IMG/VR virus record: IMGVR_UViG_3300031992_000038
Coordinates: 51,874-115,873 of that record
Direction: 5' to 3' (one strand)
Origin: a virus
Lineage: Duplodnaviria > Caudoviricetes
Length of the DNA: 64,000 nucleotides
Shown one piece after another: positions 22,055 through 52,238 of the stretch. How positions within the stretch are numbered: the first letter of the stretch is position 1; each line of letters begins with the position of its first letter. The translations under genes were made by a program, and so were the position numbers. The notes beneath the pieces were generated by a model. It was not told the origin of the DNA, did not search any database, and was given only the letters and a program-made list of their open reading frames with translations.

Positions 22055-22400
22055 CGCATTTTTTCCGGAAAAAAATTTTTTCAGAAGGCACATTGCGCAG
22101 AAAAAACAGACCGAAAAGGAAAACGGAGCGAAAACACCGGATGGGATACCGGACACGGGGATTTTTCCGGAAAATTTTTTTAGGCGGGCGAACGGACACG
22201 GGGATGGAGCGCGAGGGGGAAGAGCGGGGGAGGTAAACGGGGGATGGGAAGATGGGGAGGTAAAAATTTTTTCTGCGGGTCAGATGGCGAACCGTGCCCC
22301 CTACCCCGCCGACTGTTAAACTTTGTTAACGGAGTGGGGGGTTACGTAGGGGGGTCTACGGGGGGAGGGGTACATACCCACCCCCTATGCCCCCACCCCT
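22055..22400. other. Non-coding left boundary: TTTTCCGGAAAA palindromes and G-tract clusters
   Basis: Palindrome at ~22060 and ~22163; G runs at 22200-22260 and G6-N7-G6-N5-G6-A-G4 at 22336-22370, then C runs. Confidence 0.7.
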
Positions 22401-22714
22401 ATTTTCACATCATCAGGGTTGCCGTCGCAGTCGCACCATAGGTGGCAAAACTCGTGCCCCTTAATGGGTTCGTAATAGATCATTTCACCAAGTTCAAGGT
22501 AACTGTCCTCAAACACGTCAACGAGGATAAACCCACCGACACTGAGCGGCACACGAAAGGTGTAAATCATTGTCACCCCTTGCAGTACACCGTTAATTTC
22601 ATTGGGTTGGCGGTCAACGAGGGTCACCTCGTACGTATTAAGTAGACTCTCAAGGGTTTGACCTTTGAGACTGTTGTAAGCGTCCTTAATTGCTTTTTTG
22701 AAGATGTTGTCCAT
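22385..22714 (-). CDS. Array cassette gene, hypothetical
   Basis: ORF directly downstream of a repeat module on the minus strand. Confidence 0.65.
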   Translation of the reverse strand: MDNIFKKAIKDAYNSLKGQTLESLLNTYEVTLVDRQPNEINGVLQGVTMIYTFRVPLSVGGFILVDVFEDSYLELGEMIYYEPIKGHEFCHLWCDCDGNPDDVKIGVGA

Positions 22715-22982
22715 AATCCTTATTTTATATTGTTCAACTTCTGTTCCTTAATCACAACACTTAAAGGTAAGCATTTTATTTGAATTGACCAAATATAAAG
22801 TGTTAAAAATATGTTAAAAGTGTAAGTGTTAAAAATGTTAATTAACTTGCGTATGTGCGGAAAAAAACTTACCTTTCAGTGCCGATAGGGGGAGAGGCTT
22901 ACCCTTGCGTGTGGGCAAAAAAAGTGGGCGCAACCATATCGGTGTGCGCCCTCTCTATCGGTGTGCGGTGCGGCGGTGCTTC

Positions 22983-23414
22983 TCAGTCTTCATTTTCCGC
23001 CTCTTCGTACTCCATATCGGCGACTATGCTCTGAATTTCGTATTTGATACCGAATGTGCCGAATGCAGTGTAGTACCAATCTAAGCACCATTCTTGGAAC
23101 TTTGCGAGGTCTTCCTCGCTTATTGTGGCATTGTCAATGCTCTCTATCACGTCATCGAACTTGCCAAAGGGCTCGACCTCGCTTCTTACAAAGTCCTTAA
23201 TGTAGTCCCAATCCTCTCGGATATTCGCAAAATTGCCAATCATTCTTGTATTCTTGAGGTGGACGTACTTTCTCATATCGTCAACGATTGACTCCGCCCT
23301 AAAGTAGGCAAAATCCTCTGCAATGCTCTCCCACTGCTGATAGTCATCGGCAAGTGCGTCTTTGCACACATTGAGTACGCTCTCATAGACGTTGTCCTTA
23401 TTCAAAAATTCCAT
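22983..23414 (-). CDS. Array cassette gene, acidic hypothetical protein
   Basis: 143 aa, Asp/Glu-rich, flanked by modules. Confidence 0.75.
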   Translation of the reverse strand: MEFLNKDNVYESVLNVCKDALADDYQQWESIAEDFAYFRAESIVDDMRKYVHLKNTRMIGNFANIREDWDYIKDFVRSEVEPFGKFDDVIESIDNATISEEDLAKFQEWCLDWYYTAFGTFGIKYEIQSIVADMEYEEAENED

Positions 23415-23696
23415 ATCCTTTTATTTAAGGGGTTAAACTTGTTGGGAGTGTCAATTCCCTTAACTTGACAACTGAAAGGTAAGTATAATATTTGGATTAC
23501 GCAAGGACTTTAACACAATTAACACATTGATTGATGAAATGTTAAAAACGTTAAAACACTTGTGTATGTGCTGAAAAATGCTTACCTTCAAGTGTCGCAA
23601 GACGGGGAGGCTTACCCTCCCGATAGTCGTTTGTGGGCGACAAAGACCACACCCACCCATAGGGGCGAGCGTGGTGCGGTGCGTTGTTCGGTGGTG

Positions 23697-23972
23697 TTAT
23701 TTTACATCCACCTTGATATATTTGAACTTGAACCCCTTTGGCAGTGTTGTCGTTCCCTCGGGGAGACGTCCGCCCATCAGTTGCGCAATGTAGGCGGTGT
23801 CACCCTTCTTTAGGTGCACCTCAATTCGGTTGCAGTCCACTCCGAGGACAGCGGCGGTGTCTTTGTGTCCGACCGCTGAGACAAGTCCGCTTGGAAGTTT
23901 GTCAACCTCGGTGAAAGTCACTTGTGCGGGGGTGTCAATCATTTGGAGCGAGAAAGCATTCAGAAGATACAT
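23697..23972 (-). CDS. acrIII-1: AcrIII-1/DUF1874 (STIV B116/YddF-like) cA4 ring nuclease
   Basis: MYLLNAFSLQM...SAVGHKDTA...NRIEV.L..GD..YIAQ..GRLPEG matches the family motifs YL.NAFS..M, S.(I/V)GH..T, NR, Q...RL.EG. Confidence 0.8.
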   Translation of the reverse strand: MYLLNAFSLQMIDTPAQVTFTEVDKLPSGLVSAVGHKDTAAVLGVDCNRIEVHLKKGDTAYIAQLMGGRLPEGTTTLPKGFKFKYIKVDVK

Positions 23973-24239
23973 AATATACAATTTATAGATTAAACTTTTT
24001 GGGGTTGTCAATCCCTTAACTTGACAAACGGAAGGTAAGTATAAAATCTGAATTGCACAAGCAAATTAACGTTTTTAACAGTTCTGTAGCAAGTATGTTA
24101 AAAGTGTTAAAGTTCTTGCAAGGTTTGGAAAAAATGCTTACCTTCAAGTGCCACCGCACGGGGAGGCTTACCTTTTCGTGTGGGCAAAAAAAGTGGGCGC
24201 AAACCCCTATCGGTGTGCGCCCCTATCGGTGGTCTATTG

Positions 24240-24476
24240 TTATCGGATGCGCATCACGTGCACACCATTGTAGTCAAAATCGGTGATTGTTTGACCTACT
24301 TGCAGAGCGTTGATACGCTTGAAATCGTCTTGGTCAAGACCCATGCGGTCTGCTTCCTCTTCTGTTGAGAATGATTGTACTACTGCTTCCTCGGTGCACG
24401 CCCAATCCAATCCGCCCTCGACTATTGCGAGGAATGTTTTTTGACCTTGCTTTGTCTTAATTCTCAGTTCTTCCAT
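24240..24476 (-). CDS. Array cassette gene, hypothetical
   Basis: 78-aa ORF with its own promoter. Confidence 0.65.
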   Translation of the reverse strand: MEELRIKTKQGQKTFLAIVEGGLDWACTEEAVVQSFSTEEEADRMGLDQDDFKRINALQVGQTITDFDYNGVHVMRIR

Positions 24477-25175
24477 AATACATTATCTTTAATTGTTACA
24501 CCCGTAAGGTAAGCAAAATAATCGGAACTGACAAATTTTTCGGCAATTATTTTTACCACATTAAGATTTTTTAATAATTGTGTTAAAGTATTGTTAAAAG
24601 TGTGTATGGGTATTGCACAATCCAAAAAATTTACTTACCTTTCGGTACAATCATTAAGATAAGGTTTGTGAATTTTTGTGTGTATTATAGTAATACCGCA
24701 CTTGTCCGAGAGGGATAGGTGCGGTAGTTTTTTGTTTCGGTGCGGTCTGCTGCGATGGGTAAGCCTTCCCGTCTTGCGACACTGAAAGGTAAGGAAAATT
24801 CCCCATATACGCAAGAGTTTTAACGTTTTTAACACTTCATCGTTTAATGTGTTAATTGTGTTAAAGTGCTTGCACAATCCAAATATTATGCTTACCTTTC
24901 GATACAATCGTTAAGATAAGGTTTGTGAACTTATATGTGTTCTTTCCGCACACGTCCGCGATGGATAGGTGCGGTTCTTTTTTTGTCTTGGTGCGGTTTG
25001 CGATGGGTAAGCCTCCCCGTCTTGCGACACTTGAAGGTAAGGAAAATTCCCCATATACACAAGGCTTTTAACACTTTTAACATTTGCACTTTAACAATGT
25101 TAAAGATGTTAATTTGCTTGCATAATCCAAATAAAAGACTTACCTTTCGGTTGTAATCATTAAAGGAAAAAAGAT

Positions 25176-25763: not shown

Positions 25764-26094
25764 TGCGTCTTTATTGGGAACATACTACCGCACCCAACCG
25801 AGAGGTATATCCCGGTAGGGTGTGGCAGTACTCAAATGGGTACAATGGTGGGTGTCTTGTGGCATCCGCTTTTTTTTTTTGCGACCTTTCGCAAGGATAA
25901 GCCTCCCCTTGCTGCGCAATGGAAGGTAAGTGTTTTTTCTGACGTGTGCAAGGCTTTTAACGTTTTTAACACTTCATTCGCAAATATGTTAAAAGTGTTA
26001 ATTTGCTTGCGTGTTTCAAATATTATGCTTACCTTTCGTTTGTCAAGTTAAGGGAATGACAACCCAAGAGTTTAACCATTTAAATAATAAGGAT

Positions 26095-26835: not shown

Positions 26836-27187
26836 ATCCTACCATATCCTTATATTCGGTGGACATCGCTTGTTCGGTGTCCGCCTATTTTGCGTTAGTT
26901 CGCTTTTGGAACAATTTTTAGAATTTTCCCTATGGGGATTTTTCTGAATGCCGCCAAATCAGTTCCGTTTTGGAACAATTTTAGCGAGGGTAAGCCTTCC
27001 CGTCTTGCGACATTTGAAGGTAAGCATTTCCGGTGACATACGCAAGAGTTTTAACGTTTTTAACATTTCATCGTTTAACATGTTAATTGTGTTAAAGTCC
27101 TTGCACATTCCAAACATTATGCTTACCTTTCAGATGTCAAGTTAAGGGGGTGACCCCGCAAGTTAAACCATCTAATTTTATACGGAT

Positions 27188-27547: not shown

Positions 27548-27820
27548 ACCACCAACCAACACCAACCGATAGGGGCGCACACCGATAGGGTTGCGCCCAT
27601 TTCTTTTGCCCTTGCGCGAGGGTAAGCCTCCCCGTCTTGCGACACTTGAAGGTAAGTAAATTTTCCCATATACACAAGTCTTTTAACGTTTTTAACATTT
27701 GCACTTTAACAATGTTAAAGATGTTAATTTACTTGTGTGTCTCAAATATTATGCTTACCTTTCAATCGTCAAGTTAAGGGGAGTGACACCCCACCGAGTT
27801 TAACCTATAATAGCAATGAT

Positions 27821-28210
27821 ATGAAGATTTTTCATTTGGTTTTGCCCACCACGGGCGAGTTTACGAAGGGCAATGTTGACACAGTGACCGCAACCGAATT
27901 GGTTGACAAGTACGACCGATGGCTTGGGGACAAGGTTAGTGATGTGCTTGCTCTTGGGATTGGGCAAAGTCTCACTTATGATGGTGTGATTATCATCTGC
28001 GTGAGTGACAAAGTTGAAACCCACAAGAAGACCTACCGCTTTGATGTGACCTATACTGCAGGGGTTGTCGTTGAGGTAGAGGCGTGCAACATCAAGGAGG
28101 CGAAAGAACTCGCCAAAAAGAAAGCGGAGCGTAATTTGACACTGACACACGAAAACGAGACCACAACAGATGTGTGGGTCGTTGATGTGACTGAGAGAGA
28201 GTTTGATTAA
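27821..28210 (+). CDS. Array cassette gene; N-domain shared with next gene, DpnD/PcfM-like C-domain
   Basis: KTYRFDVTY...VVEVEA.N..EA.ELA. Confidence 0.7.
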   Translation: MKIFHLVLPTTGEFTKGNVDTVTATELVDKYDRWLGDKVSDVLALGIGQSLTYDGVIIICVSDKVETHKKTYRFDVTYTAGVVVEVEACNIKEAKELAKKKAERNLTLTHENETTTDVWVVDVTEREFD

Positions 28211-28475
28211 CCGCACACCCATAGACAGGGCGAGTGCCACACACGGCACCGCCCATTTCTTTTGCCCTTGCGTTGGGTAAGCCTCCCCGTCTTGCGACAC
28301 TGAAAGGTAAGGAAAATTTCCCACATACGCAAGAGTTTTAACGTTTTTAACATTTGTGCTTTAACAACGTTAAAGATGTTAATTTGCTTGTGTAATTCAA
28401 ATAAATTACCTACCTTCCAATCGTCAAGTTAAGGGAATGACAAACCCACCGAGTTTAACCTATAATAGCAATAAG

Positions 28476-28925
28476 ATGAAAACATTTCATTTGGTTCTCC
28501 CGACCACGGGCAATTTTACGAAGGGCAACATTGACACAGTGACCGAGAGCGAATTGGTTGATAAGTACGATCGATGGCTTGGGGACAAGGTTAGTGATGT
28601 GCTTGCCCTTGGGATTGGGCAAAGTCTAATCTACGATAGTGTGATTATCATCTGCGTGAGCGGAAAAGTCGGTTATAAATGGTCGTGCAAGTGCTCTGAT
28701 GGTGGTTACACGGATGAGAGCGATAAGGTCTACAAGACCGAGACAGAGGCATACAACGCAATGCGCGATGCCGCACTGACCAAAATGAAGTGGAACACCG
28801 AGCGAGACGAGGAGGTGAGTGAGTTCGGTTGTGTGACCTATGAGGTCATCTTCAGACCGAACGAAATCATTCACAAGTCCTTCAGCGGCACATACACGTA
28901 CCGCGTTGAACCTTCGACCTATTGA
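28476..28925 (+). CDS. Array cassette gene; N-domain duplicated from 27821, different C-domain
   Basis: First ~62 aa nearly identical to the previous gene. Confidence 0.75.
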   Translation: MKTFHLVLPTTGNFTKGNIDTVTESELVDKYDRWLGDKVSDVLALGIGQSLIYDSVIIICVSGKVGYKWSCKCSDGGYTDESDKVYKTETEAYNAMRDAALTKMKWNTERDEEVSEFGCVTYEVIFRPNEIIHKSFSGTYTYRVEPSTY

Positions 28926-29157
28926 CTTTCGTCAACACCGCAAGGTGGGCGAGTACCACACACGGCACCGCCCATTTCTTTTGCCCTTGCGCGAGGATAA
29001 GCTCCCCCTTGCTGCGCAATGGAAGGTAAGCATTTTTCTTGACGTGTGCAAGCCTTTTAACGTTTTTAACACTTCTGTAGCAAGTATGTTAAAAGTGTTA
29101 ATTTGTTTGCGTGTCTCAGTTTTTTTGCCTACCTTCTGAATATAATCTTCAAGGTAT

Positions 29158-29751: not shown

Positions 29752-29967
29752 TGGGTTTTTAACTTGACAATGCGGGCGCACACCGAACAAGGGTTGCGCC
29801 CATTTTTTGCGACCTTGCGCGAGGGTAAGCCTTCCCGTCTTGCGACACTGAAAGGTAAGCAAAATTCTTCACATACACAAGAACTTTAACACTTTTAACA
29901 CTCACACTTTTAACACATTTTTAACATTAAAAATTTGGTCAATCCAAAAAGTTTTCTTACCTTACAG

Positions 29968-30036: not shown

Positions 30037-30289
30037 ATTGTGTAATCTTTAATGTTTCTTTTTTTGTAACATTTTTTTAACACTTAAAATTTGCACATGT
30101 CAGATTTTTTTCTTACCTTCAAGTGCCACCGCACGGGGAGGCTTACCTTGCACAGACGGAAAAAGATTTACATCATTAACATTCTTTAACGGAAAATATT
30201 TGGCCGTCCCAAATATTATGCTTACCTTTCAATCGTCAAGTTAAGGGGGCGACACCCCCACAAGTTAAACCTATTAAAATAATAAGGAT

Positions 30290-30853
30290 ATGGCAACACC
30301 AAATTACCACAAGGCTATGACAAAGCAATACCACGTCATCGAGAGCGAGGATGTGAATGTGTACGACTTGTATGAGCAAATCATGGAATGTGACGGCTTC
30401 GAGCAGTCAAACGTCCACCGCACCCGTCGGGGAGACGTTGTTCTCGGCGAGAAGGAGACTGTAGCACGCTACGGCAAGCGATGCACCTTTGACCTTACAC
30501 TGACAATGCTTGTATCGGTCAACTCGGGGTACTACTTCGGGGCAAACGTGGACTACGAACTATATGCGCACATTGACGGGGGCAGTGATTTCATCCTGTC
30601 ATCCTTCGACACCATCGAGGACGCGGTTGACGCCCTGATGGAGGAGGCATTCGACAACGCCGACTACGATTATGTGTGGTTCAACAAGGGTCTTCAGAAG
30701 ACCCACGAGGAGAGCATCCGCAAGATGTACACCGAAGCCATCGAGAAGGCGATGGAAGAAGGCGAGAAAATCTGCGAGAGCATGGCTGACACGCATCTGC
30801 GCTGCATCGGGGTGTTCAGCAACGGCGAGGCGGTCTACGAGGTTGCAGGCTGA
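30290..30853 (+). CDS. Array cassette gene, acidic hypothetical protein
   Basis: SGYY.GA motif and C-terminal GVFSNGEAVYE. Confidence 0.75.
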   Translation: MATPNYHKAMTKQYHVIESEDVNVYDLYEQIMECDGFEQSNVHRTRRGDVVLGEKETVARYGKRCTFDLTLTMLVSVNSGYYFGANVDYELYAHIDGGSDFILSSFDTIEDAVDALMEEAFDNADYDYVWFNKGLQKTHEESIRKMYTEAIEKAMEEGEKICESMADTHLRCIGVFSNGEAVYEVAG

Positions 30854-31008
30854 CGACAAAGCATCGGGGGCGCACACCGCACCGGATGCGCCCCTACATT
30901 ATACTAAAAGTACTCAAATGAGTACAACATTAACAATTATTAACACGCAAGGTATTGCACATGTCAGAAATTTTGCTTACCTTTGCCACATAACAATTTC
31001 AAAAGATT

Positions 31009-31521
31009 ATGCTAAAAGAAACAAATGCGAAAATCAAGCATGGCGCCGTCATTGATATGTGCGCTACCGGTGCCCACGGCGCAAGCCTGAGAGACCGAAA
31101 GAACCTGTCTTCAGTGACCTTGAAGATGGATGGCGGGCGCACGATGTCGTTCAAGGCCATCCGCCACATGGACGGAGAGCATGACCGCCTTGGCGAGACT
31201 GAGATACTTTTTGAGGACTCGGGCCGAGAGGTGTTCTGCGGAACGCTGACCGAACTTGAGAGCCGTCTCTACAACGTCCGCTATCAATATGAGGGCGAGA
31301 TATACAACCGCGAGGAGTTTGAGGATGTGATCAGGGAACTGCTATGCAGCGGTGACCTGTTCTACAACGACACCCCATTGTTGGACGTTGGTGACGTGAT
31401 AGACGTGGCTGAGAGGGAGCGCAAGTGCTATTTGCAGCATTACGTTGGCGGTCTTGGCGAATGCGCCTACCCTGCAAACCTTTTTGTCAAGGTGGTGACG
31501 CTTGACCGCAAGACACGATAA
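31009..31521 (+). CDS. Array gene, hypothetical
   Basis: Canonical TACCTTTG promoter at ~30978. Confidence 0.7.
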   Translation: MLKETNAKIKHGAVIDMCATGAHGASLRDRKNLSSVTLKMDGGRTMSFKAIRHMDGEHDRLGETEILFEDSGREVFCGTLTELESRLYNVRYQYEGEIYNREEFEDVIRELLCSGDLFYNDTPLLDVGDVIDVAERERKCYLQHYVGGLGECAYPANLFVKVVTLDRKTR

Positions 31522-31808
31522 CGATAAGAGGATTTTTGTGTGTTTTTCATGGCGCCGCGCCCGTCCGCGATGGATAGGTGCGGTTTTCTTTTGCCCTTGC
31601 GCAAGGGTAAGCCTCCCCCTTGCTGCGCAATGGAAGGTAAGCATTTCAGATGACATGTGCAAGGCTTTTAACACTTTTAACCTTTGTGCTTTAACAATGT
31701 TAAAGATGTTAATTTGCTTGCACAACCCAAAAAGTTTACTTACCTTTCGTTTGTCAAGTTAAGGGAATGACACCCCACTAAGTTCAACAATCTAAATCAA
31801 GGAAATAT

Positions 31809-42143: not shown

Positions 42144-42220
42144 GCAGTACTCAAATGAGTACAAATAAACAATAACAAACCACACGGGCGGGGCAACCCG
42201 CCCGATAAAAAGACTACGAT

Positions 42221-42747: not shown

Positions 42748-43027
42748 TCGTTTGCGTTTTTAGATGGTGTGTGGCGGAATGGTAACGAATCCATCCGCCA
42801 CGCTTTTTTCGTCCTCACCGCAAAGGTAAGCCTCCCCGTGCGGTGGCACTTGAAGGTAAGAAATTTCCGTGAAATGCGCAAGTTAATTAACACTTTTAAC
42901 ATTTCAACTTTTAACAAATTTTTAACACAATATATTTGACCATTCCAAATAAAATGCTTACCTTTCAATCGTCAAGTTAATGGGAGTGACACCCCCGAAA
43001 GTTCAACCATCTAAAAGCAGAACAACA

Positions 43028-43993
43028 ATGAAAGCAAAACCAAAAGTCGGTGACATCATCTACTATGACGGAAACAAACTGAAGGCCACAAGCAAGAAGA
43101 AATGGAGCGCGTCGCTCGGCACACCCGTGGCGGTGGTGGTTATCCCTGCCTCCCACATGCCTGACGGAAAGTGCAGGGGAATGTCGCTGTGCAACATGTC
43201 GTACAAGACACCGCAGACGGGCACGCTCGGAACGGGCAACGACAACGCTGAGGCCAACGGCACGAATCTGATGTGGGGCGTTCACGGAACGGATGTCTCG
43301 GGTCTGACGAACTACGGCAACATCATGTCCACAAAAGGAATAACAATGCTCGATTTCGGTCTCTTTCCGAGCGACCTGTTCAAGGGCGTGATAACAATGC
43401 TCGATTTCGTGAAGAGACCGGGTGTCCTGTTCGATGGAATGGACACCCAAAACAATGAGGACGACACCGAGACCGCTTGGATGAAGACAAGAGAAGCACG
43501 CGCAATCTCCCCCTACGCCTCTGACGGCTCACAGAACCCAGCGTACATCACCGCGGGTCAGGCCCTCGCCGACATGGACGGCAAGGCGAACACAAAGGTT
43601 ATTGCCAACCTCTCCGCAATCAAGGACACCTATTCGGGTGGAGCGTTCGAGAACATTGAGGAGAACTACCCCGCAGCGTTCGCTTGCACCCTTTTCAGCA
43701 CACGCGGAACCTCTCAAGGTGATTGGTACCTCCCAGCAATGGGTGAGTTGGGCTATCTGTACACGCGTATCAAGAGAATCAACGAGTCTCTCGCCGCACT
43801 CGGCACATCAGCCGTTCAGTTCGGCGACCAAACGAAGGACCTCTCTTCTTTGGGCTCTTGGTGTTGGTCTTCGACAAAGTGCTATAGTTACGCATCATAC
43901 GGACTAACCTACTATGGCGGTTTTTTCGGCGGCGGTAGGGAACTCAACGAAGATGACTACCGAGTGAGGGCATTCGCTGCATTTGACTTATAA
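43028..43993 (+). CDS. DUF1566/C-type-lectin-like protein, untagged paralog of 6501-7628
   Basis: Long near-identical blocks, e.g. ASLGTPVAVVVIPASHMPDGKCRGMSLCNMSY. Confidence 0.85.
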   Translation: MKAKPKVGDIIYYDGNKLKATSKKKWSASLGTPVAVVVIPASHMPDGKCRGMSLCNMSYKTPQTGTLGTGNDNAEANGTNLMWGVHGTDVSGLTNYGNIMSTKGITMLDFGLFPSDLFKGVITMLDFVKRPGVLFDGMDTQNNEDDTETAWMKTREARAISPYASDGSQNPAYITAGQALADMDGKANTKVIANLSAIKDTYSGGAFENIEENYPAAFACTLFSTRGTSQGDWYLPAMGELGYLYTRIKRINESLAALGTSAVQFGDQTKDLSSLGSWCWSSTKCYSYASYGLTYYGGFFGGGRELNEDDYRVRAFAAFDL

Positions 43994-44273
43994 TGTGTTC
44001 CGCGACCTATTGGGCGAGTGCCACACACGGCACCGCCCATTTCATTCGCCCTTGCGCGTGGATAAGCCTCCCCGTCTTGCGACATTGGAAGGTAAGAATT
44101 TTTCCTGACATGCGCAAGTTAATTAACACTTTTAACACTTCCGAAAAAAGTTTATCTAATTAACATTCTTTAGCAGAATATATTTGGCCAATCCAAATTT
44201 TATGCTTACCTTTCGGTTGTCAAGTTAAGGGGATTGACACCCCCACAAGTTCAACCATCTAAATCTTTAGATT

Positions 44274-45365
44274 ATGATTATCAACAACGCTTTCGCAAAC
44301 GCAGCAGCAGTCATCAACCCCACAACGGCAACACCCGCCGCACCCGCGTGGGCACTTTTCGGAACCACCTACGACAAGCCCGTCACCATTGACGAGGTCT
44401 TTGAGGACGACAAGACGGGCCTTAATTATGAGGTCACTGAGCAGCCCATTGTCCGTGTTCCTCAGAGCGTCATTGACGCAATCCGCGCAGGTGAGCCGTT
44501 CAATTGGGAGCCCAACCCCAACACCATCATCGACACCCACAAGGCCACAGTCTACGGAACTGACGGGGCAACGCTCGGTGTCGTAGGTCAGTCCTATGGA
44601 GTGGTCCAAAACCGCAAGGCCATGGAGTTCATCAACTTCATCGAGGAGTGCAGCGGTCACAAGCCCGAAATCGTTGCAGCGGGTTATCTCGGCAAGGGCG
44701 AGAGAATGTTCGTCACCGCACGTTTGGGAGAGGACGTGTACATCGGCAAGGATGACGCCGTCACGAACTATGTGGTGTTCACAAACTCGCATGACGGGTC
44801 AGGCTCGGTCACCGCAATGCTGACACCCATCCGAGTGGTGTGCCAAAACACGCTCAACATGGCACTGAAACAGACCGCCAACAAGCTGTCGTTCCGTCAC
44901 ACCTCAAAGGTTGAGGAGCGTCTCGACTTCCAAATTGCCGCCAACCGCGAGCGCGCCGCCGCCGTGTTCAAGCAGTACAATGTGTTCACCGAGCAGTTCA
45001 TCGCCGCAATGCTCGACCTGAAGGACCAAGACGTGACCAAGGCCGACACGATGGAGTTCGCCGCACGGATGTTCATGAGCCCCGCACAACTCAAGTTGTG
45101 GAACCTCGCAGACCGAGACATGGACAAGGTGGACGAGATCCCCACCCGTATGAAGAACAACGTGAACGCGTTGCTCTCCGCAATCGAGAGCGGTATCGGT
45201 CAGGCTCAGCACCGAGGGACAAAGTTGTGGCTGCTCAACGGCCTCACGACCTACCTGCACAACGAACGCAAGTGGTCCACACCGCAGGACGAGTACAAGT
45301 CGCTGATGGAAGGTGACGGACTGAAAAAGGTGCAGAAGGCATACGAATGGCTCAAAGCGGCCTGA
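44274..45365 (+). CDS. DUF932/DUF945 phage-plasmid protein
   Basis: LGVVG..Y.VVQN..A..F, G.L..GER.F, NSHDGSGS, TPIRVVCQNTL, RHT, GT..W..NG.T.Y. Confidence 0.88.
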   Translation: MIINNAFANAAAVINPTTATPAAPAWALFGTTYDKPVTIDEVFEDDKTGLNYEVTEQPIVRVPQSVIDAIRAGEPFNWEPNPNTIIDTHKATVYGTDGATLGVVGQSYGVVQNRKAMEFINFIEECSGHKPEIVAAGYLGKGERMFVTARLGEDVYIGKDDAVTNYVVFTNSHDGSGSVTAMLTPIRVVCQNTLNMALKQTANKLSFRHTSKVEERLDFQIAANRERAAAVFKQYNVFTEQFIAAMLDLKDQDVTKADTMEFAARMFMSPAQLKLWNLADRDMDKVDEIPTRMKNNVNALLSAIESGIGQAQHRGTKLWLLNGLTTYLHNERKWSTPQDEYKSLMEGDGLKKVQKAYEWLKAA

Positions 45366-45740
45366 CGCACGACACACCACACGGAGCGGGCGGTTGACAC
45401 ATGTCACCGCCCGTTTCTTTTGCCCTTTCGCAAAGGTAAGCCTCCCCGTGCGGCAGCACTTGAAGGTAAGCATTTCCGGTGACATACGCAAGGCTTTTAA
45501 CGTTTTTAACACTTCTGTAGCGCGTATGTTAAAAGTGTTAAAGTCATTGCACAAATGAAAAATTTTCCTTACCTTCCATTGCGCAGCGAGGGGAAGCTTA
45601 CCCACGCGGTCACAACCACACCTTCATTTTTAACAAATTATTAACATTTTATATTTGGCCAATCCAAATAAAATGCTTACCTTTCAATCGTCAAGTTAAG
45701 GGGAATGACAACCCCAACAAGTTGAACCATCTAAATCTCT

Positions 45741-46229
45741 ATGATTATGAAAAAGTTACATCAAGTAATGGTAAAAGAAGCATTTGCAAACCTCAACTGC
45801 GTGGTGTCTGACAACCTCGCCGCACACATTGGCGAGAACGGAAAAGTGGACGCTACGGCGTTCCGAATCGCGTTGGACGCGTACAACCGCTATCAGGAGG
45901 ACGAATGCGATGGATGTGATTACGTCTTCAACATCAGCAACCAAGATGACCTGTCGGTTCTTGTCAAGTGCGGAACAACAGCACAGGAAATCGCCGACAT
46001 GGTGGCAACCGGTTTCACGATGTTCCACGTGGGGTACAACTACCCGAAGCCGCAACCACTTTCACAAATGGACGTGTGCCGCGCCATCATCGGTATTTCG
46101 GACGCACTGACGAACACCGCGATGCTGCTGCAAAACCAAAGCAGCGACTACTCCAAGTTCCTTGACTTCTTCCTCTATGACGAGGTGATGAAGGAAACAG
46201 ACCTGTACGCGCTTCTCACCAAGCAGTAA
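45741..46229 (+). CDS. Array cassette gene, hypothetical
   Basis: ORF after leader. Confidence 0.7.
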   Translation: MIMKKLHQVMVKEAFANLNCVVSDNLAAHIGENGKVDATAFRIALDAYNRYQEDECDGCDYVFNISNQDDLSVLVKCGTTAQEIADMVATGFTMFHVGYNYPKPQPLSQMDVCRAIIGISDALTNTAMLLQNQSSDYSKFLDFFLYDEVMKETDLYALLTKQ

Positions 46230-46537
46230 CGGCGGCGGACACATACGGACGCGGGCGAGTGCCACACACGGCACCCGCCCATTTCTTTTGCCCGCACACA
46301 CACACAAAGGTAAGCCTCCCCGTCTTGCGACATTTGAAGGTAAGCCTCCCCGTCTTGCGACATTGGAAGGTAAGCAAATTTTCCCATATACGCAAGTTAA
46401 TTAACATTTTTAACATTTCAACTTTTAACACATTTTTAACACTTTAAATTTGGCCAATTCAAAAAAATGTCTTACCTTTCAGATGTCAAGTTAAGGGAGT
46501 GACATCCCACAAGTTAAACCATCTAAATGCAGCAGAT

Positions 46538-46852
46538 ATGAAACTACTGACGAAAGCAATTGAGAACAAGTTGGCAAAGCGGCCCCTTTACTCGCAAGAC
46601 GGAAAGGGCGGAGAGGCCGAAATCATCGTGAAATTCTTCAACCCATGCGGAGCGGGCACATGGTATGTGCTTGAGGGAGAGAAGCAAGCAAACGGAGATT
46701 GGTACTTTTTCGGTCTTGCCGAAATCGGTTACGGGCTTGAATACGGATATTTCTCGCTCAACGAACTGAATAGCCTGCGCTTGCCGTTCGGACTGACCAT
46801 CGAGAGAGACCTGTATTTCAGCGGCAAGGTTAAGGACGTTATGAAAGACTGA
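46538..46852 (+). CDS. DUF2958-family protein
   Basis: KFFNPCGAGTWY..E...FFGL....EYGYFSL.EL....IERDLYF. Confidence 0.85.
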   Translation: MKLLTKAIENKLAKRPLYSQDGKGGEAEIIVKFFNPCGAGTWYVLEGEKQANGDWYFFGLAEIGYGLEYGYFSLNELNSLRLPFGLTIERDLYFSGKVKDVMKD

Positions 46853-46858
46853 CACGCC

Positions 46859-47068
46859 ATGATAGAGTTCAAATATACCGATGTTGTCCTCTATGACGGG
46901 GACACCGAGACCGAGAGCGGAGAGGCGCACAAAGTTCTTTCAATTGACGAGACGGGCGCCCACATGGACAACGGGGAGACGTGGTGCTATGGCGACCTGA
47001 GCGACTATGAGTTCGGCATCCTTTCCAAATCATTAGAACACGAACTGCAAAAACTGACAGAACAATGA
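46859..47068 (+). CDS. Array gene, hypothetical
   Basis: Operon with DUF2958 gene. Confidence 0.6.
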   Translation: MIEFKYTDVVLYDGDTETESGEAHKVLSIDETGAHMDNGETWCYGDLSDYEFGILSKSLEHELQKLTEQ

Positions 47069-47364
47069 AGGAAGAAATTATCAAACAAGTGGCGGCATAC
47101 GTCACATGCGGATGGGGGTACACATACCCCAAGAACGTGACCTGCGACACAAGCGAGGGGACAATCACGCTCAACGAACTGACGCAGACCATAGACGATA
47201 ACATATCGCTCACCTACTCCACAGGTGACGGACGAATTGCGGTGAAACGTCTCGCGGACTTCACCGAGAGGGAAATGGTGGAAATCATCAACAAGGCCGT
47301 GCTGACCAAGTTTTGGGGCAACGCGCTCACAAAGGAACTGAAAGAAAACAACATCAAACTCTAA
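47065..47364 (+). CDS. Array gene, hypothetical
   Basis: ATGA-coupled. Confidence 0.6.
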   Translation: MKEEIIKQVAAYVTCGWGYTYPKNVTCDTSEGTITLNELTQTIDDNISLTYSTGDGRIAVKRLADFTEREMVEIINKAVLTKFWGNALTKELKENNIKL

Positions 47365-47368
47365 GGAT

Positions 47369-47647
47369 ATGAAACTGACAGAAAACGACATCAAGCGACT
47401 GAGACGAATAGGGTACATGGACCACGATATTACGTGGATAGAGAAAGACCTCTACAACGACCGCTACACCTATGAACTATACCGAACCGACAACGGCAAG
47501 AAGGTAAAGGACCTGACGGCCGAGAACGCAATCAGGTGGGTAGGGCGCAAGAATTTCCTTTCAGGGATAGGTCGGGCCTGCTTCCACCATACGGCGGTCA
47601 GAGAGGGCAAAAACGGACGTTACGTGTTTTTTGAATGCAACGACTAA
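47369..47647 (+). CDS. Array gene, hypothetical
   Basis: GR..FLSG..RA.FH.TA.R motif. Confidence 0.65.
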   Translation: MKLTENDIKRLRRIGYMDHDITWIEKDLYNDRYTYELYRTDNGKKVKDLTAENAIRWVGRKNFLSGIGRACFHHTAVREGKNGRYVFFECND

Positions 47648-47866
47648 CCGCACGACCAACACCACAGAACGGGCGAGTGCCACACACGGCACCCGCCCAT
47701 TTTTTTGCGCCCACACGCGATGGGTAAGCCTCTCCCCCTATCGGCACTTAAAGGTAAGATTTTTTCTTGACATGTGCAAGGACTTTAACACTTTTAACAT
47801 TTCAACTTTTAACAAAGTTTTAACACTCAAAATTTGGCCGTTCCACATAAAATGCTTACCTTCTGA

Positions 47867-47935
47867 ATGTTGGGAGAACAGAAATCTCCCAAAGGGCAAG
47901 GATAAGACCTTGGAGTATAATCTCCGACGCGCCTT
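47867..47935 (+). ncRNA. Candidate structured ncRNA, copy 2 of 3
   Basis: TTGGGAGA/TCTCCCAA, CAAGG/CCTTG, GGAG/CTCC stems after promoter. Confidence 0.55.
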
Positions 47936-48078
47936 GAAATATAGAATATATTGTTTGTTTATCTTTAACAAATTTTTAACACTTTATTTTTGGCCGTTCC
48001 AAAATTTTTACTTACCTTTCGGTTGTCAAGTTAAGGGGAGTGACACCCCCGCAAGTTGAACCATCTAAACGCAGAACA

Positions 48079-48330
48079 ATGGACATCTACACCATCGCAT
48101 TCGCAACAACCAACGGCGGAGACCTCTACATGGAGACAAAGGTCTACACCGACAAGAGCCTCGCAATGTACGCCCTGCGCGGATACGCTGAGAGCATCAT
48201 CGAGGACAACGCGCTCGACACCGACGCGGACACGCTCATCGCACAGCACACGACCACCTACCCCACAGGGGTGAAAATGCTCACCTACAACGGGGAGTAC
48301 ATGGTCGAACTCAAGAACGTCAAACTCTAA
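48079..48330 (+). CDS. Array cassette gene, hypothetical
   Basis: ATG after conserved leader. Confidence 0.65.
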   Translation: MDIYTIAFATTNGGDLYMETKVYTDKSLAMYALRGYAESIIEDNALDTDADTLIAQHTTTYPTGVKMLTYNGEYMVELKNVKL

Positions 48331-48335
48331 ACAAA

Positions 48336-48803
48336 ATGACCGATATGGGAAGGTATACAGACATCTATGCCGAAGTGCGCACTGACTACAACGCTGACGG
48401 GTTCACCTGCATCGACGCGTGGCGCACAGATGACGACAACGAGGAGGGACGCACAGTGGCCGTGGTCCACGAGAGCGGGGACGTCTACTACAACGAGCCC
48501 GAGGCCCGCAGAAGCCAAATGGTGACCGAGGCCGTTGCGCAGGTAAGGGCCCGTGCGCAAACCCTCAACGAGCAACGGATGCTCGAGCAGCACATGACCG
48601 ACTATTGGCACGATGACAGAATCGCCGAGATCGACGACATCTGCTGCCTCATGGACCAAGACGGGGACGAGGTAAAACTCGCACGGCTCGCAGAGGAATA
48701 CAAGGGATGCGACCCCAAGGCCGAACACGACCGACTGATGCGCGAGTGCCTCGAGGAGGCGTTCCGAAACTACCTCAACAAGTACTACCAAGTACCCAAA
48801 TGA
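48336..48803 (+). CDS. Array gene, hypothetical
   Basis: IDAW.TDDDNEEG..VA motif. Confidence 0.7.
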   Translation: MTDMGRYTDIYAEVRTDYNADGFTCIDAWRTDDDNEEGRTVAVVHESGDVYYNEPEARRSQMVTEAVAQVRARAQTLNEQRMLEQHMTDYWHDDRIAEIDDICCLMDQDGDEVKLARLAEEYKGCDPKAEHDRLMRECLEEAFRNYLNKYYQVPK

Positions 48804-48876
48804 GTACAATCAGACAACACTAACTAACAACAACGGGGCGGCACGAACAACCACCCAACAAAAAACAACTACGACA

Positions 48877-49440
48877 ATGACACTAAGGACAAAGCAGCAG
48901 GTGGCCGAGCGAATCACCAAACTGCTCGCAATAATCGACAAGAACGACAAGACAAAGGTCTCAGCCCTCATGCGCAAGAACGACATGGAGCAACTGCTCC
49001 GTATGGAGAGCGAACTCACGGCCAAGGCGCAGGCGGCCGTCGGATGCGCGCCGCAACCCGCAATCACAGCCGAGGAACTCGACCAAGCGAAACGGGCATA
49101 CCTCGATGACATGGAGCGACTCGCCGAGCGAGTCAACAAAGCACTCAAGCAGTCGGGATACGGGTTCACGTTCACCACACCCACAGGGCCATCGTCATCG
49201 CTGAAGATGGACGGGGAGACTATCTACACCTCACTGAACGACAAGGGACAGATAAGAATCACCATCCCTTCGGCCACAATCACTCCCGAGACCGAACACA
49301 GCAAGACAACGCTCCTCGGACAAGCGGCGAGACTTTGCGGGGACATCGCCACGCTCGGGACAATGGAGGACGCACTGCGCACATCCTCGCGCAGGCTGAC
49401 CGAACTCGCAGGACTGAACAAACAACACAAAGCACAATAG
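48877..49440 (+). CDS. Array gene, hypothetical
   Basis: 187-aa ORF. Confidence 0.65.
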   Translation: MTLRTKQQVAERITKLLAIIDKNDKTKVSALMRKNDMEQLLRMESELTAKAQAAVGCAPQPAITAEELDQAKRAYLDDMERLAERVNKALKQSGYGFTFTTPTGPSSSLKMDGETIYTSLNDKGQIRITIPSATITPETEHSKTTLLGQAARLCGDIATLGTMEDALRTSSRRLTELAGLNKQHKAQ

Positions 49441-49447
49441 GACGACA

Positions 49448-49660
49448 ATGGGAAAGACAATCAAAATCAAGGTGGCCGACACCTTCAGCGGACAATCACT
49501 CACATTCCGCACAACCGCCGACAAACTCGCGGCGGAAGGACGATGGACATGGCTCACGCGCTCACAACGCAGCAGACTTGAACAAGCGTTCGGCAAACCG
49601 AGATGCTACTACTGCACAATCCTCACAAGCGAGGACAACGAATTCCACGCATACAACTAA
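49448..49660 (+). CDS. Array gene, hypothetical
   Basis: Operon position. Confidence 0.55.
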   Translation: MGKTIKIKVADTFSGQSLTFRTTADKLAAEGRWTWLTRSQRSRLEQAFGKPRCYYCTILTSEDNEFHAYN

Positions 49661-49673
49661 CCGACAAAAGGAC

Positions 49674-49961
49674 ATGGACAGACAGAAGGCGAACAGAATG
49701 GCGGAAGCCATACTATCGGATAAGACGATGGCAAAACACGTACTGAAACACGAATGGCTGAGCGGCTCGTCCACAATGGTCGCACCGCTGACAATCGGAG
49801 CGAACTACGCAAGCGCGCAGGTGGACACCGACAAACCGAACACGCTGAACAAAGCAATCAGACGAATCGTTGACAACAACACGGACCTGTTCGGAGACGG
49901 GCGGTTCTGCAAGTCTGACGGAAGCTGCCCAAGCGAGGTGAGATTCTACTACGCGGACTGA
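49674..49961 (+). CDS. Array gene, hypothetical
   Basis: ATG at 49674 after previous stop. Confidence 0.6.
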   Translation: MDRQKANRMAEAILSDKTMAKHVLKHEWLSGSSTMVAPLTIGANYASAQVDTDKPNTLNKAIRRIVDNNTDLFGDGRFCKSDGSCPSEVRFYYAD

Positions 49962-50301
49962 ACACCAAACTACCGATAAAAACAACAATCCCCACTCATC
50001 AAAACCAACCTGATGAATGGGGGTTGTTCGCTTTTGGAACAATTTTTAAAATTTTCCCTATGGGGATTTTCCCGAACAAGGCGAATTCAGTTCCGTTTTG
50101 GAACAATTTTACCAAAGGTAAGCCTTCCCGTCTTGCGACATTTGAAGGTAAGCATTTTCCTCGACATGTGCAAGAGATTTAACTTTTTTAACACTTCTGT
50201 AGCAAGTATGTTAAAAGTGTTAATTACATTGGCCGTTCCAAATATTTTGCTTACCTTCCATCCGTAAAATGAAAGTTAAACCATAAACAAAACATCAGAC
50301 T

Positions 50302-50691
50302 ATGAACTATCTCAGTTATCACCTGAATGACGGGGCGGACTGGCAAGCAAGAGCAGTCCTCGCGTGTCTCGGAACATGCGGAGTCCCCGAGAACGTGGAC
50401 CTCAACGTGGCACGCTATCAGAACGGACGCGAGCAGGGGTACATCTTCACCGCACGCGTGAAACACACCGAGAGACAGCGCAATTACGCCGTATATGAGC
50501 ATCGCAACTCTGACGACCTTTGCGTGGTAGTGAACGACACGCACACATTCGGAGAACCCGCCTCAGAAATCATCTACGAAGGCATGAAGGACAAGTGGGA
50601 CACCACAAAGGACTTCCGCTGCGGGCAAATCCTTGAATGCGCTGAATGGATTCAGGACGACATCAGCGAGTGGGCGCAGCAGGAGAACTGA
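50302..50691 (+). CDS. Array cassette gene, hypothetical
   Basis: NGREQGY and EHRNSD motifs. Confidence 0.75.
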   Translation: MNYLSYHLNDGADWQARAVLACLGTCGVPENVDLNVARYQNGREQGYIFTARVKHTERQRNYAVYEHRNSDDLCVVVNDTHTFGEPASEIIYEGMKDKWDTTKDFRCGQILECAEWIQDDISEWAQQEN

Positions 50692-50809
50692 CAACACGCA
50701 CATACAGACAACCGATGACGGCCCGAGAACGCTGCACAAAGCGACCCGGGCCGCCAACGTAACCAAAAACAACGATTTCAGCGAACCGCCCAAAACGCTC
50801 AACAAAACC

Positions 50810-50932
50810 TCCTGCAAATTATAGCGAAATCAGTTCGCAGGAGCGGCGGGCACTGGATGACATCCCGTTCAGCGAAATCCCTGCGAATATCAACGAATTT
50901 CCTGCGAATTATAGCGAAATTGCTTGGCAGGG
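50810..50932. repeat. Short imperfect direct repeats (CCTGCRAAT..AGCGAAAT)
   Basis: cctgcaaattatagcgaaat at ~50811, cctgcgaatat at ~50880, cctgcgaattatagcgaaat at ~50901. Confidence 0.6.
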
Positions 50933-51015
50933 AAACGGACACTGGAACCTTGCGTTTTTAACACATTTTTAACATAATATATTTGGCCATTCCAAATATT
51001 ATTCTTACCTTTCAA

Positions 51016-51086
51016 ATGTTGGGAGAGGAACACCACCGCTCCCAAAGGGCAAGGGTAAGTCCTTGGAGTATAATCTCCGACGCGCA
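51016..51086 (+). ncRNA. Candidate structured ncRNA, copy 3 of 3
   Basis: TTGGGAG/CTCCCAA, CAAGG/CCTTG, GGAG/CTCC stems after promoter. Confidence 0.55.
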
Positions 51087-51779
51087 CTGCACTCTCCTCC
51101 TGAAAAACATACCTCTCTTAACAATCATTAACGCGCCAATCATTGCACATTCCCCGTTTTTTTCCTACCTTACGGATGTCAAGTGAGGGATACACCCCCG
51201 CACGACCGACAACACAGAACGACAAAATGAAAACGGCAATGGCAACACAGAGCAGAAGCGCACACGCAAGCGCAAGACAACAAGGGGACACCCGACCGCA
51301 CGCGCCGCCATCAGAACAACGGCGACCGGAACGCACCAGCATACACACGCACGGCCCGCACTACACCCGAGCCGCAACGGACGCCCAACTAACACAAATC
51401 ACCGCACGACAACAGACGGGAAAACTTACAATCCGTAACCGCACCCCCATACGGAACAAAAACGGATTGTAATATAAAAGCGGTATTTTTGTGACAAATT
51501 ATAACAAATGACAAGATAAGGACAAATGACGAAGGAAAATATGTTAAAGGTCATGGCGGCACATTCATACATGGATGACCGGCAGAGGAGGCTTGCGGTC
51601 TCCACAGCGATGAGGCTGAACAGCAAGACCGAGACGGAGGCGATGTACCGAATGTTCAGGGAACGGGCGCTCACGGCCGACACATGCCTCAGGGCACTCG
51701 CCACACCGAGAAGAATGAGGGACAGGGCGCAACACACGACCCCTCGTACTCAAATGAGTACAAACAACATCAGACGCAC

Positions 51780-52238
51780 ATGGGAAAGAAAGACAAGACC
51801 ACAAGGCTCGCGCTGAAGATAGCGGAGGAACTCGGGACTGAACAGCCCACTGAAAGCAAGACCACCAACTCCGCATACATCGCTGACGCTCTCGGGAGCG
51901 GGCTGGACGTGCGCGTCAGCGACCACCTGACACGGCCGAAGGCGGGCGAGGCGCAGATAATCCTCAACAACGACGGCACAGTCTCGGCGGTGCTCGGGCT
52001 CTACATCCTCACTGTCAGCAGAAGGGACATCATCACAACGCTCAAGGCGTGGGCCTTCGCAAGGATGACGCAGAGCAAGGACGCGGCGGACGGGATAATC
52101 AACGGACTCAAGGAGGAACTCGCACAGGCAAAGGAGGAGGCAAGACCGATGCGAGGACTGACACCGGCGCAGAAACGGGACGTGGAGACCTACATCGCAA
52201 AAAAATTCAAAACGGAAGGGGCGACCAAAAAACCGTGA
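51780..52238 (+). CDS. Hypothetical protein (S.Y...VRVSDH motif)
   Basis: TTNSAYI...VRVSDH; last ORF of the array. Confidence 0.65.
   Translation: MGKKDKTTRLALKIAEELGTEQPTESKTTNSAYIADALGSGLDVRVSDHLTRPKAGEAQIILNNDGTVSAVLGLYILTVSRRDIITTLKAWAFARMTQSKDAADGIINGLKEELAQAKEEARPMRGLTPAQKRDVETYIAKKFKTEGATKKP

Follow-up and report, generated by a model that had tools for sequence, protein, structure and literature searches.

A 30-kb array of repeated mirror-promoter modules, a probable shuffled early region, in an uncultured rumen phage

We analyzed a 64,000-nt stretch of viral DNA (hereafter, the window), comprising bases 51874-115873 of the 115,873-bp IMG/VR viral contig IMGVR_UViG_3300031992_000038, which contains a 30-kb array of small genes separated by copies of a regulatory module. 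The array is best explained, at a probability we place near 0.7, as the early hyperplastic region of a rumen phage with a T4-type head, in which genes are shuffled by way of the modules much as they are by the promoter-early stem-loops (PeSLs) of T4-type phages. Positions are those of the window unless a contig is named.

CheckV puts the completeness of the contig at 32%. Many proteins of the window were found as exact copies on a 330,287-bp contig, as well as on a contig of 92,597 bp, and the phage is therefore huge, with a genome of roughly 330 kb. A T4-type large terminase and a T4-type portal are encoded upstream of the array, the portal matching the Pfam family Portal_T4 with an E value of 5e-78. 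The nearest portals among isolated phages are those of Flavobacterium phages, at 34% identity, and the host is most likely a member of the Bacteroidota. The variant contigs described below come from assemblies labelled SHIW14, STEW19, and others; from these labels alone, we take the two named to be sheep- and cattle-rumen studies.

Architecture of the array and its promoter

Modules and small open reading frames (ORFs) occupy the window from 22.3 to 51.5 kb. The core motif GGTAAGCCTCCCC, allowing up to two mismatches, had 33 matches in the window versus 0.6 expected; all but 3 fell within 22.8-50.2 kb, and across the whole 116-kb contig the motif was nearly restricted to the array. A preliminary description of this DNA had listed a terminator, core, palindrome, promoter box, and leader as the parts of the module, and each was recovered in a repeat search as a family of 20-28 copies. 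The full module consists, in order, of a GC-rich hairpin and T tract, the core GGTAAGCCTCCCC with a small hairpin, two mirror promoters, and a conserved leader. Read directly, the array has 36 forward CTTACCTT boxes; what comes after a box is a leader with its ATG, a non-coding unit, or a terminator. Copies of this one homologous module cut the array into about 36 autonomous transcription units. The four genes at 22385-24476 point leftward and all remaining genes rightward, as had been described. The same architecture had further been assigned to nearly every intergenic space, with 1-4 genes to each of about 30 modules. Repeated modules are indeed present, 28 of them in full form, but about a third of the promoters are in a short form without terminator and core, and cassettes carry from 0 to 5 genes, there being three non-coding and two empty units. 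The array and its modules are as follows.

22385-52238, both strands: whole array, about 50 small ORFs, 28 full and about 12 promoter-only modules
22764-22903, minus: full module, core and mirror promoters, "direct" TTAACA-box class; drives 22385-22714
23476-23616, minus: full palindromic module; drives 22983-23414
24032-24172, minus: full palindromic module; drives the AcrIII-1-like gene
24476-24640: divergence point of the leftward and rightward halves, boxes at 24506 (minus) and 24634 (plus)
24758-24898, plus: full palindromic module
25006-25146, plus: full palindromic module, type-2 leader
25896-26035, plus: full palindromic module, type-1 leader
26989-27129, plus: full palindromic module
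27621-27761, plus: full palindromic module
28276-28416, plus: full palindromic module; its terminator is the left crossover partner in the L015 deletion
28996-29135, plus: full palindromic module; right crossover partner in the L015 deletion
29824-29963, plus: full module, "direct" box class; drives non-coding unit A
30112-30228, plus: promoter box, inverted core (30135-30147, minus), and short promoter; drives 30290-30853
30976-30983, plus: promoter-only box; drives 31009-31521
31606-31746, plus: full palindromic module
32256-32396, plus: full palindromic module
33239-33246, plus: promoter-only box, type-2 leader
33627-33766, plus: full palindromic module; right half in the L011 hybrid junction
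34809-34949, plus: full palindromic module, type-2 leader
35628-35768, plus: full palindromic module, type-2 leader
36324-36464, plus: full palindromic module
36717-36798, plus: promoter-only module, type-2 leader
37563-37703, plus: full palindromic module
38359-38499, plus: full palindromic module
39271-39410, plus: full palindromic module
40293-40433, plus: full palindromic module; left half in the L011 hybrid junction
41212-41352, plus: full palindromic module
41566-41620, plus: promoter-only module, type-1 leader
42825-42964, plus: full module, "direct" box class
44061-44212, plus: full module, the sole one with 108-nt spacing
45435-45575, plus: full palindromic module; its forward box runs into an inverted core (45590-45602, minus)
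45616-45683, plus: promoter-only module; drives 45741-46229
46309-46478, plus: full module, 30-nt core unit tandemly duplicated (46309, 46339)
47723-47862, plus: full module, "direct" class; drives non-coding unit B
47951-48018, plus: promoter-only module; drives the five-gene cassette 48079-49961
50117-50257, plus: full palindromic module
50944-51011, plus: promoter-only module; drives non-coding unit C
51116-51171, plus: last promoter box, degenerate leader

A GC-rich hairpin of -12 to -27 kcal/mol precedes the core in 26 of the 28 full modules, its T-rich tail ending 17-31 nt short of the core, and such a structure is predicted to be able to terminate upstream transcription. The mirror promoters that follow the core each have the form YTTG-N20-TACCTT, and together they surround four TTAAC boxes. 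Of 66 matches to this pattern in the window, 63 fall in the array, with 34 on the plus strand and 29 on the minus strand; each of the other spacers from N16 to N23 gave 0-2 matches. From one TACCTT to the other the distance is 97 nt in 22 modules, 96 nt in 5, and 108 nt in 1, and the 97-nt spacing is also kept in an 88%-identical lineage (contig L013). The same box precedes three different kinds of unit, namely those with a type-1 leader (about 21), those with a type-2 leader (about 8), and the non-coding units (3), and it is therefore a common promoter rather than part of one leader. Its geometry equals the published Bacteroidetes -33/-7 arrangement, with the primary-sigma consensus of TTTG near -33 and TAnnTTTG at -7 (PMC7366714), the host here being a presumed member of that group; we infer a promoter of the host primary-sigma (Bacteroidota sigma-A) type. 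About 10 genes outside the array are preceded by a lone TTTG-N20-TACCTTTG with free spacers.

The type-1 leader reads GTCAAGTTAAGGG-TGACA-CCC..AAGTTnAACCATCTAAA and the type-2 leader TGTAATCATTAAAGGA; both end 9-12 nt before the ATG, the TCTAAA of type 1 lying 9-12 nt upstream of it. Shine-Dalgarno-like motifs were found before 1 of the 77 non-array genes and 1 of the 49 array genes, and the sequence ahead of the start is enriched in A. In the Bacteroidetes, mRNAs have no Shine-Dalgarno sites and show an A-rich stretch at -11 to -15 (PMC7366714). A sigma-70 reading of the leader itself (TGACA-N17-TCTAAA) was rejected: the type-2 and non-coding units are without the motif, yet share the upstream box, and a sister lineage puts the homologous leader tail downstream of its own promoter.

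A different signal, TATTTA(T/A), stands about 25-45 nt before the ATG of structural and other non-array genes (for example, window 5015, 6501, 15871, 16646, 17381, 52778, 54021, and 56841), and is likely a late promoter resembling the TATAAATA of T4. Counted within 60 nt of the start, TATTTA is present in 20 of the 77 non-array genes versus none of the 49 array genes, whereas TACCTT, counted within 110 nt, is present in 8 of the 77 versus 33 of the 49. Because a Bacteroidota-type promoter and the lack of Shine-Dalgarno sites coincide with a different TATTTA signal on the structural genes, we read the array as a putative host-polymerase early-class region, separate from the T4-like late class, its early timing being presumed from promoter class.

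The same architecture might be read by a phage-encoded RNA polymerase or sigma factor, with CTTACCTT and the spacer being phage-specific. Conserved sequence inside the array, AATCCAAATATTATGCTTACCTTTC, extends well beyond a minimal host promoter, and the -7 box TACCTTTC deviates from TAnnTTTG in its last base. The sister lineage, moreover, uses a sigma-54-type promoter on homologous cargo, so promoter class is changeable, and the DNA examined is a third of the genome. We nonetheless consider this improbable, since the stand-alone copies keep only TTTG, N20, and TACCTTTG with their spacers free, as a host-type consensus predicts, since the geometry is that published for the Bacteroidetes, and since common descent and gene conversion of modules explain the extra conservation in the array.

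Two further observations concern the core and the repeat as a whole. The hairpin of the core occurs in three or four sequence variants that keep the stem, with modest covariation support, and the 30-nt core unit (GGTAAGCCTCCCC, hairpin, TTGAA) is tandemly duplicated at 46309-46368, consistent with slippage between flanking GGTAAG direct repeats. A 35-residue ORF (MCKAFNVFNI...) recurs in the modules across the TTAAC boxes and promoter (23460-23660 on the minus strand, 31655-31762, 33675-33782, 37612-37719, and others); as it spans the promoter, it was judged a by-product of the repeat and not a gene.

Module mosaicism, natural variants, and a sister lineage

Within the window itself, the modules bear the marks of exchange. 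When their left, center, and right thirds were compared separately, the nearest neighbors differed from segment to segment, and the correlations between the segments' distance matrices were low, at 0.10-0.23, with p = 0.001 in a permutation test like that of the pairwise homoplasy index. The modules are therefore mosaics.

Two variant contigs have junctions inside modules. Contig L015 (98% identical, 9 kb) is without the second of two tandem paralogues (28476-28925) and one module, the crossover lying in the terminator common to the flanking modules. Contig L011 runs through window 37532-40481 and then 33620-43164, and its junction is a clean hybrid, head to tail, of the modules at 40.3 and 33.6 kb, with the crossover in their shared -33 region; this is compatible with the footprint of a 6.9-kb tandem duplication or of an excised circle. 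A third contig, L020, joins the modules at 30.2 and 45.7 kb, with the crossover in a 31-nt identical stretch. Because of that stretch, which equals what we take to be the k-mer size of the Logan assemblies, L020 was not counted as evidence of rearrangement.

Other relatives differ elsewhere. Contigs L013 and L014 (88% identical) are colinear with the window over 10.9 kb and are without the 84- and 65-residue genes at 35791-36045 and 36795-36992, while having an extra gene of 90 residues. Contig L018 (93% identical) carries a 1.44-kb insertion (L018:2573-4012, with genes of 269 and 132 residues) relative to window 52726-52750, at the right edge of the array. In the same contig, the block before a BspA-type leucine-rich-repeat protein is replaced (L018:6379-9932). 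These differences mark a second variable region, one probably concerned with host recognition.

A sister lineage is represented by L010 and L022, two Logan contigs from different runs that are 94% alike, in which the locus adjoins a homologue of window gene 56841-57911. Its cargo is homologous to that of the window but differs in order, with counterparts of the genes at 35791 (46% identity), 32457 (43%), 37026 (31%), 45741 (35%), and 36795 (60%). The C-terminal 100 residues encoded by 34147-34725 are 86-88% identical to a stand-alone 109-residue protein (L010:2176-2505, L022:1970-2299); compared with 31-60% for the other shared cargo, this suggests that the gene or domain was recently exchanged between the lineages. 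No window-type module was found in either contig. Their genes are preceded by a unit made up of a hairpin, TGGCAY-N5-TTGCW, a covarying hairpin, ACAACCTTTAAA with about 10 nt, and the ATG, and the leader tail resembles the CAACCATCTAAA of the window. The pattern TGGCAY-N5-TTGCW, which we take to be a perfect fit to the sigma-54 -24/-12 consensus, had 10 matches in 7.8 kb versus 0.01 expected, all on the coding strand (L010:250-7800 and L022:1-7800, about 15 small genes). A search of the literature turned up no description of phage arrays built on promoters of the sigma-54 type. Between L010 and L022 there are four cassette indels, with their borders inside these sigma-54-type promoters. Given the reordered cargo and the different promoter, the locus is thus a conserved hyperplastic region where the cargo varies in order and content and where even the class of promoter changes. 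In one intergenic space (L010:1640-1700), the promoter is preceded by four TGTCAG repeats that resemble an enhancer site.

The preliminary description had proposed that recombination between modules adds, deletes, and reorders genes, and had named a fixed gene order with breakpoints away from the modules as evidence to the contrary. The mosaicism, L015, L011, and the sister contigs favor the proposal, variation in these contigs lying at modules or promoters, but close relatives are mostly syntenic, and the breakpoints of L013 and L018 lie elsewhere, not module to module.

The regulon might accordingly be static, its modules repeated only for shared control, and the variants might be assembly artefacts or illegitimate indels. 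The colinearity of most relatives, the position of the L013 indels, the identity of the duplicated copies in L011, and the 31-nt repeat at the L020 junction all fit this view. On the other side, the mosaicism lies within the window and is independent of the relatives' assemblies; the L015 junction is a clean hybrid with substitutions of its own; the L011 hybrid needs k-mers spanning a crossover between modules 68% alike; the L010/L022 indels carry unique sequence, with borders sharing about 17-20 nt, below k = 31; and homologous cargo is ordered differently between lineages. A static regulon is, in our estimation, quite unlikely.

Several of the same facts weigh against the shuffled early region that we favor, and they should be set down together. 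Relatives at 88-98% nucleotide identity are mostly syntenic and colinear over 5-11 kb, three of the indels of L013 have their breakpoints at leader/gene borders instead of running from module to module, and the L018 insertion lies outside any module. The variant contigs are short-read assemblies, and the two L011 copies are identical, so that an assembly loop is possible. The leader hairpin is no more stable than shuffled sequence (z-scores of -1.1 to +0.8), and a search for a host link yielded no clustered regularly interspaced short palindromic repeat (CRISPR) or prophage match, with two scans of genome collections empty. Module-to-module exchange is not the sole process and perhaps not the main one; as module crossovers and gene-border indels are both seen, homologous exchange and ordinary indels both occur.

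Further searches outside these contigs returned little. The DNA had zero blastn matches against phage records, and the module patterns matched nothing in viral contigs or in genome contigs, their sole match in metagenome contigs being a near-identical 1.2-kb fragment (L009). No related locus was found in viral contigs using as queries the DUF932 protein of the array and the two proteins flanking the array, and a homologue search with the left-flank protein matched only itself. An ORF of 1206 residues that lies 4 kb before the window (contig 44204-47824; L025) had no close relative in the genome collection. The window has no tRNA by a tRNA scan and no credible Rfam family at gathering thresholds.

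Mirror symmetry of the module and comparison with known systems

The center of the module reads as a long imperfect palindrome. To score pairing between its arms, we used an ungapped alignment of 22 palindromic modules, controls in which the alignment was slid, and 500 shuffles that unlink the arms. Symmetric positions were able to pair in 68% of cases versus 31-42% in the slid controls, but this was less than the shuffled mean of 70%, and the covariation score fell below all 500 shuffles. The pairing is due to invariant boxes, namely the -7 box, the -33 box, and two TTAAC boxes in each arm, while the -7/-33 spacers are non-complementary between arms. In five modules, the inner boxes are direct rather than inverted, and the 96-nt spacing is still kept. 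As there is no compensatory change between the arms, the palindrome is argued to be a mirror of protein-binding boxes and not an attC- or Frpo-like hairpin. An attC-like fold, a hairpin promoter of the Frpo or N4 kind, and a ribonuclease III stem are each disfavored by the absent covariation, the unpaired spacers, and the direct-box modules. The same evidence favors a protein-DNA architecture in which two divergent promoters surround a shared four-box site.

The palindrome of about 115 bp could also be a selfish element resembling a miniature inverted-repeat transposable element, with terminal inverted repeats GAAGGTAAG...CTTACCTTTC and outward promoters, like the Correia elements of Neisseria. 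Perfect terminal inverted repeats of 8-9 bp, a constant length of 97 nt, and outward promoters at both ends are what such an element would have. Its register, however, is fixed, every copy lying between a terminator-core segment and a leader; those two flanks are conserved but dissimilar, with no target-site duplication; nearly all copies lie in one 30-kb region of 116 kb; the five direct-box modules keep their length and ends; and no cognate transposase was found. We hold a selfish origin to be very unlikely.

Least probable is that the repeat folds, in the manner of attC, Frpo, or N4-type hairpins, for a site-specific recombinase or a polymerase: despite the long imperfect inverted repeat with its AT-rich center, the DUF932 and DUF2958 genes that had earlier been linked to entry regions of mobile elements, and a recombinase search that covered a third of the genome, the arms show no compensatory change and pair less than shuffles with their spacers unpaired, five direct-box modules cannot form the stem yet keep the spacing, every cassette has a promoter of its own, no tyrosine or serine recombinase was found in 116 kb, and the crossovers lie in different parts of the module (the terminator, the -33 region, or the -7 box and leader), in each case where the identical stretch is longest, a pattern that indicates homologous and not site-specific exchange.

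That no recombinase was visible in the window, as the preliminary description had remarked, was borne out more widely: searches of the 116-kb contig, about a third of the genome, with PF00589 and PF00239 found no integrase or resolvase, with controls positive. The array does resemble integron arrays in being a one-directional row of small unrelated genes between imperfect inverted repeats. It differs in having invariant sequence boxes without covariation in place of the conserved attC-type fold, and in its 36 forward boxes and terminators in 26 of 28 full modules, where integron cassettes are promoterless and depend on one Pc promoter. Its junctions also occur at variable points, indicating homologous exchange. 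We therefore rejected the array as an integron, and the term "integron-like" used for it earlier does not hold.

The PeSLs had been named as the known analogue, and here the comparison proved the right one. PeSLs were described in the T4-type phages RB49/phi1, PST/T4, and nt-1/KVP40 (Arbiol et al. 2010, PMC2839356; Comeau et al. 2014, PMC4122927) as composites of about 100 bp in which a strong sigma-70-like early promoter and an AT-rich upstream tract are combined with a terminator stem-loop. About 50 occur per genome, concentrated in hyperplastic regions before ORFans, and their recombination with one another accounts for the indels that distinguish close relatives and gives rise to mini-circles (PMC2839356; PMC4122927). 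The testable features of PeSLs are present in the array. The module combines a terminator with a putative host-type early promoter, the activity of both being predicted from sequence, and is repeated tens of times; it lies in a hyperplastic region, before ORFans, in a phage with T4-type head genes. The motifs are seams for insertion, deletion, or replacement between relatives (L015, L011, and L010/L022, with L013 and L018 differing at gene borders), and hybrid motifs at junctions are what a deletion, a duplication, or the formation of a mini-circle would be expected to leave behind.

The module departs from PeSLs in several respects. It is about 200 nt long rather than about 100 bp, it has two mirror promoters at a fixed 97 bp around four TTAAC boxes, and a further core, also conserved, lies downstream of the mirror promoter. 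Instead of a Shine-Dalgarno site there is a long conserved 5' leader, the promoter belongs to the Bacteroidota -33/-7 type and not to sigma-70, and the copies form one contiguous 30-kb array. By this analogy, the array would be a larger, mirror-symmetric variant of PeSL cassettes.

The T4 early region, the T5 pre-early region, and the SPO1 terminal-redundancy module are early or host-takeover clusters of large lytic phages with reiterated host-type promoters. Like them, the array is dense in small unknown genes, nearly every one with a presumed strong host-type promoter, and lies apart from late genes that have another short motif. In those clusters the promoters share a functional consensus only, whereas here whole 200-nt modules are homologous, mosaic, and bidirectional.

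Cargo, proposed mechanism, and implications

Pfam recognized DUF932, DUF2958, and STIV_B116/AcrIII-1 proteins among 50 cargo ORFs, along with one weak match, and left 46 of the 50 without a family. The three families expected from the preliminary description were thus all found, but its view of the cargo as anti-defense genes, while supported by one AcrIII-1-like gene, is weakly supported for the remainder. PHROGs added nothing functional, NCBIfam and PADLOC together added only TIGR03299 and four weak matches (E 2e-5 to 6e-3), and ESM Atlas look-ups of two cargo proteins gave nothing usable. The features named in this section are listed below.

23697-23972, minus: AcrIII-1/STIV_B116-like protein, 91 residues (Pfam PF08960, E 3e-8)
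24634-24733, plus: empty cassette 1; promoter, short type-2 leader, terminator; no ORF of at least 30 residues
24891-24983, plus: empty cassette 2; duplicate of cassette 1, 248-nt period
27821-28210, plus: cargo paralogue 1, 129 residues
28476-28925, plus: cargo paralogue 2, 149 residues; absent from L015
29964-30060, plus: structured non-coding unit A
35791-36045, plus: cargo protein, 84 residues; absent from L013
36795-36992, plus: cargo protein, 65 residues; absent from L013, with a homologue elsewhere in L022
44274-45365, plus: DUF932/TIGR03299 protein, 363 residues (Pfam, NCBIfam)
46538-46852, plus: DUF2958 protein, 104 residues (Pfam)
47863-47955, plus: structured non-coding unit B
51012-51110, plus: structured non-coding unit C

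The product of ORF 23697-23972 matched PDB entries 2x4i, 2j85, and 6scf with E values of 2e-4 to 4e-3 and retains the catalytic His region with its GH motif (AVGHKDT versus SIGHDST), and it probably belongs to the AcrIII-1 family of ring nucleases (DUF1874, STIV_B116-like). The tandem paralogues at 27821-28210 and 28476-28925 have the module, the leader, and the first 65 residues (88%) in common, while their C-terminal halves are unrelated; they may be a family with a common N-terminal domain or the product of an intragenic crossover.

Five units of the array are without an ORF. Units A, B, and C are promoter-driven and share a predicted three-stem structure, in which stem P1 (UUGAG/CUCAA or UUGGGAG/CUCCCAA) is followed by AAGGGC...GCGCC around two hairpins. 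Unit A is conserved to about 98% in L013, the lineage at 88% identity, and unit B had no credible Rfam family at E values up to 10. The three are candidates for a new small RNA. The two empty cassettes, each with a promoter, about 50 nt containing a type-2-like leader, and a strong terminator, persist in L015 and L016 and may be either what is left after cargo was lost or genes for tiny RNAs or peptides.

Taken together, the parts suggest how the region may operate in host takeover or another accessory role. In each module, an intrinsic terminator would end transcription of the unit before it. Next, a back-to-back pair of host primary-sigma-type promoters (-33 YTTG, 20 nt, -7 TAccTT(T/C)), 97 bp apart, would flank four TTAAC boxes that may be a shared activator, repressor, or UP site. 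From the forward promoter, the message would begin a few bases after TACCTTTC and carry a type-1 or type-2 leader, setting an A-rich tract at -10 to -15 of the ATG without a Shine-Dalgarno site. The mirror promoter, which points at the small hairpin and GGGGAGGCTTACC, would fire back into that variable hairpin and the GGGGAGGCTTACC element. As the modules are long (about 200 nt) and alike, general phage recombination would use them as crossover points, and such crossovers would delete, duplicate, and re-join cassettes with each gene keeping a promoter and terminator, which is the PeSL principle.

A further reading goes beyond this mechanism, and we offer it tentatively, as possible though rather doubtful. 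In it, the module is a bidirectional control unit of fixed geometry whose promoter block is exchangeable between sister phages. About 28 mirror promoters would each make a short multicopy RNA (the covarying hairpin and GGGGAGGCUUACC) or an antisense transcript into the preceding cassette, and this RNA, acting alongside a protein that sits on the four TTAAC boxes and on the type-1 leader, would set the timing of early expression or insulate it. The promoter block would be swapped, from a sigma-A type here to sigma-54 -24/-12 in L010/L022, with the leader tail (CAACCWTYTAAA, about 10 nt, ATG) and the cargo families kept. If true, some huge phages run accessory genes on sigma-54. The PeSL literature accounts neither for the mirror promoter and its fixed 97-bp spacing nor for the sister array of the sigma-54 type.

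The array as a shuffled early region would extend the PeSL principle, that regulatory repeats are recombination seams, to an uncultured huge rumen phage that probably infects Bacteroidota. At least 60 natural copies of a probable Bacteroidota promoter and two leaders without Shine-Dalgarno sites are possible expression parts for Bacteroides and Prevotella genetics, and the approximately 46 ORFans, flanked by an AcrIII-1-like gene, form a defined list of candidates for host takeover or counter-defense. Accessory genes in such a region would be swappable without losing their expression signals, a principle that the comparison suggests may be general among large phages with T4-type heads.

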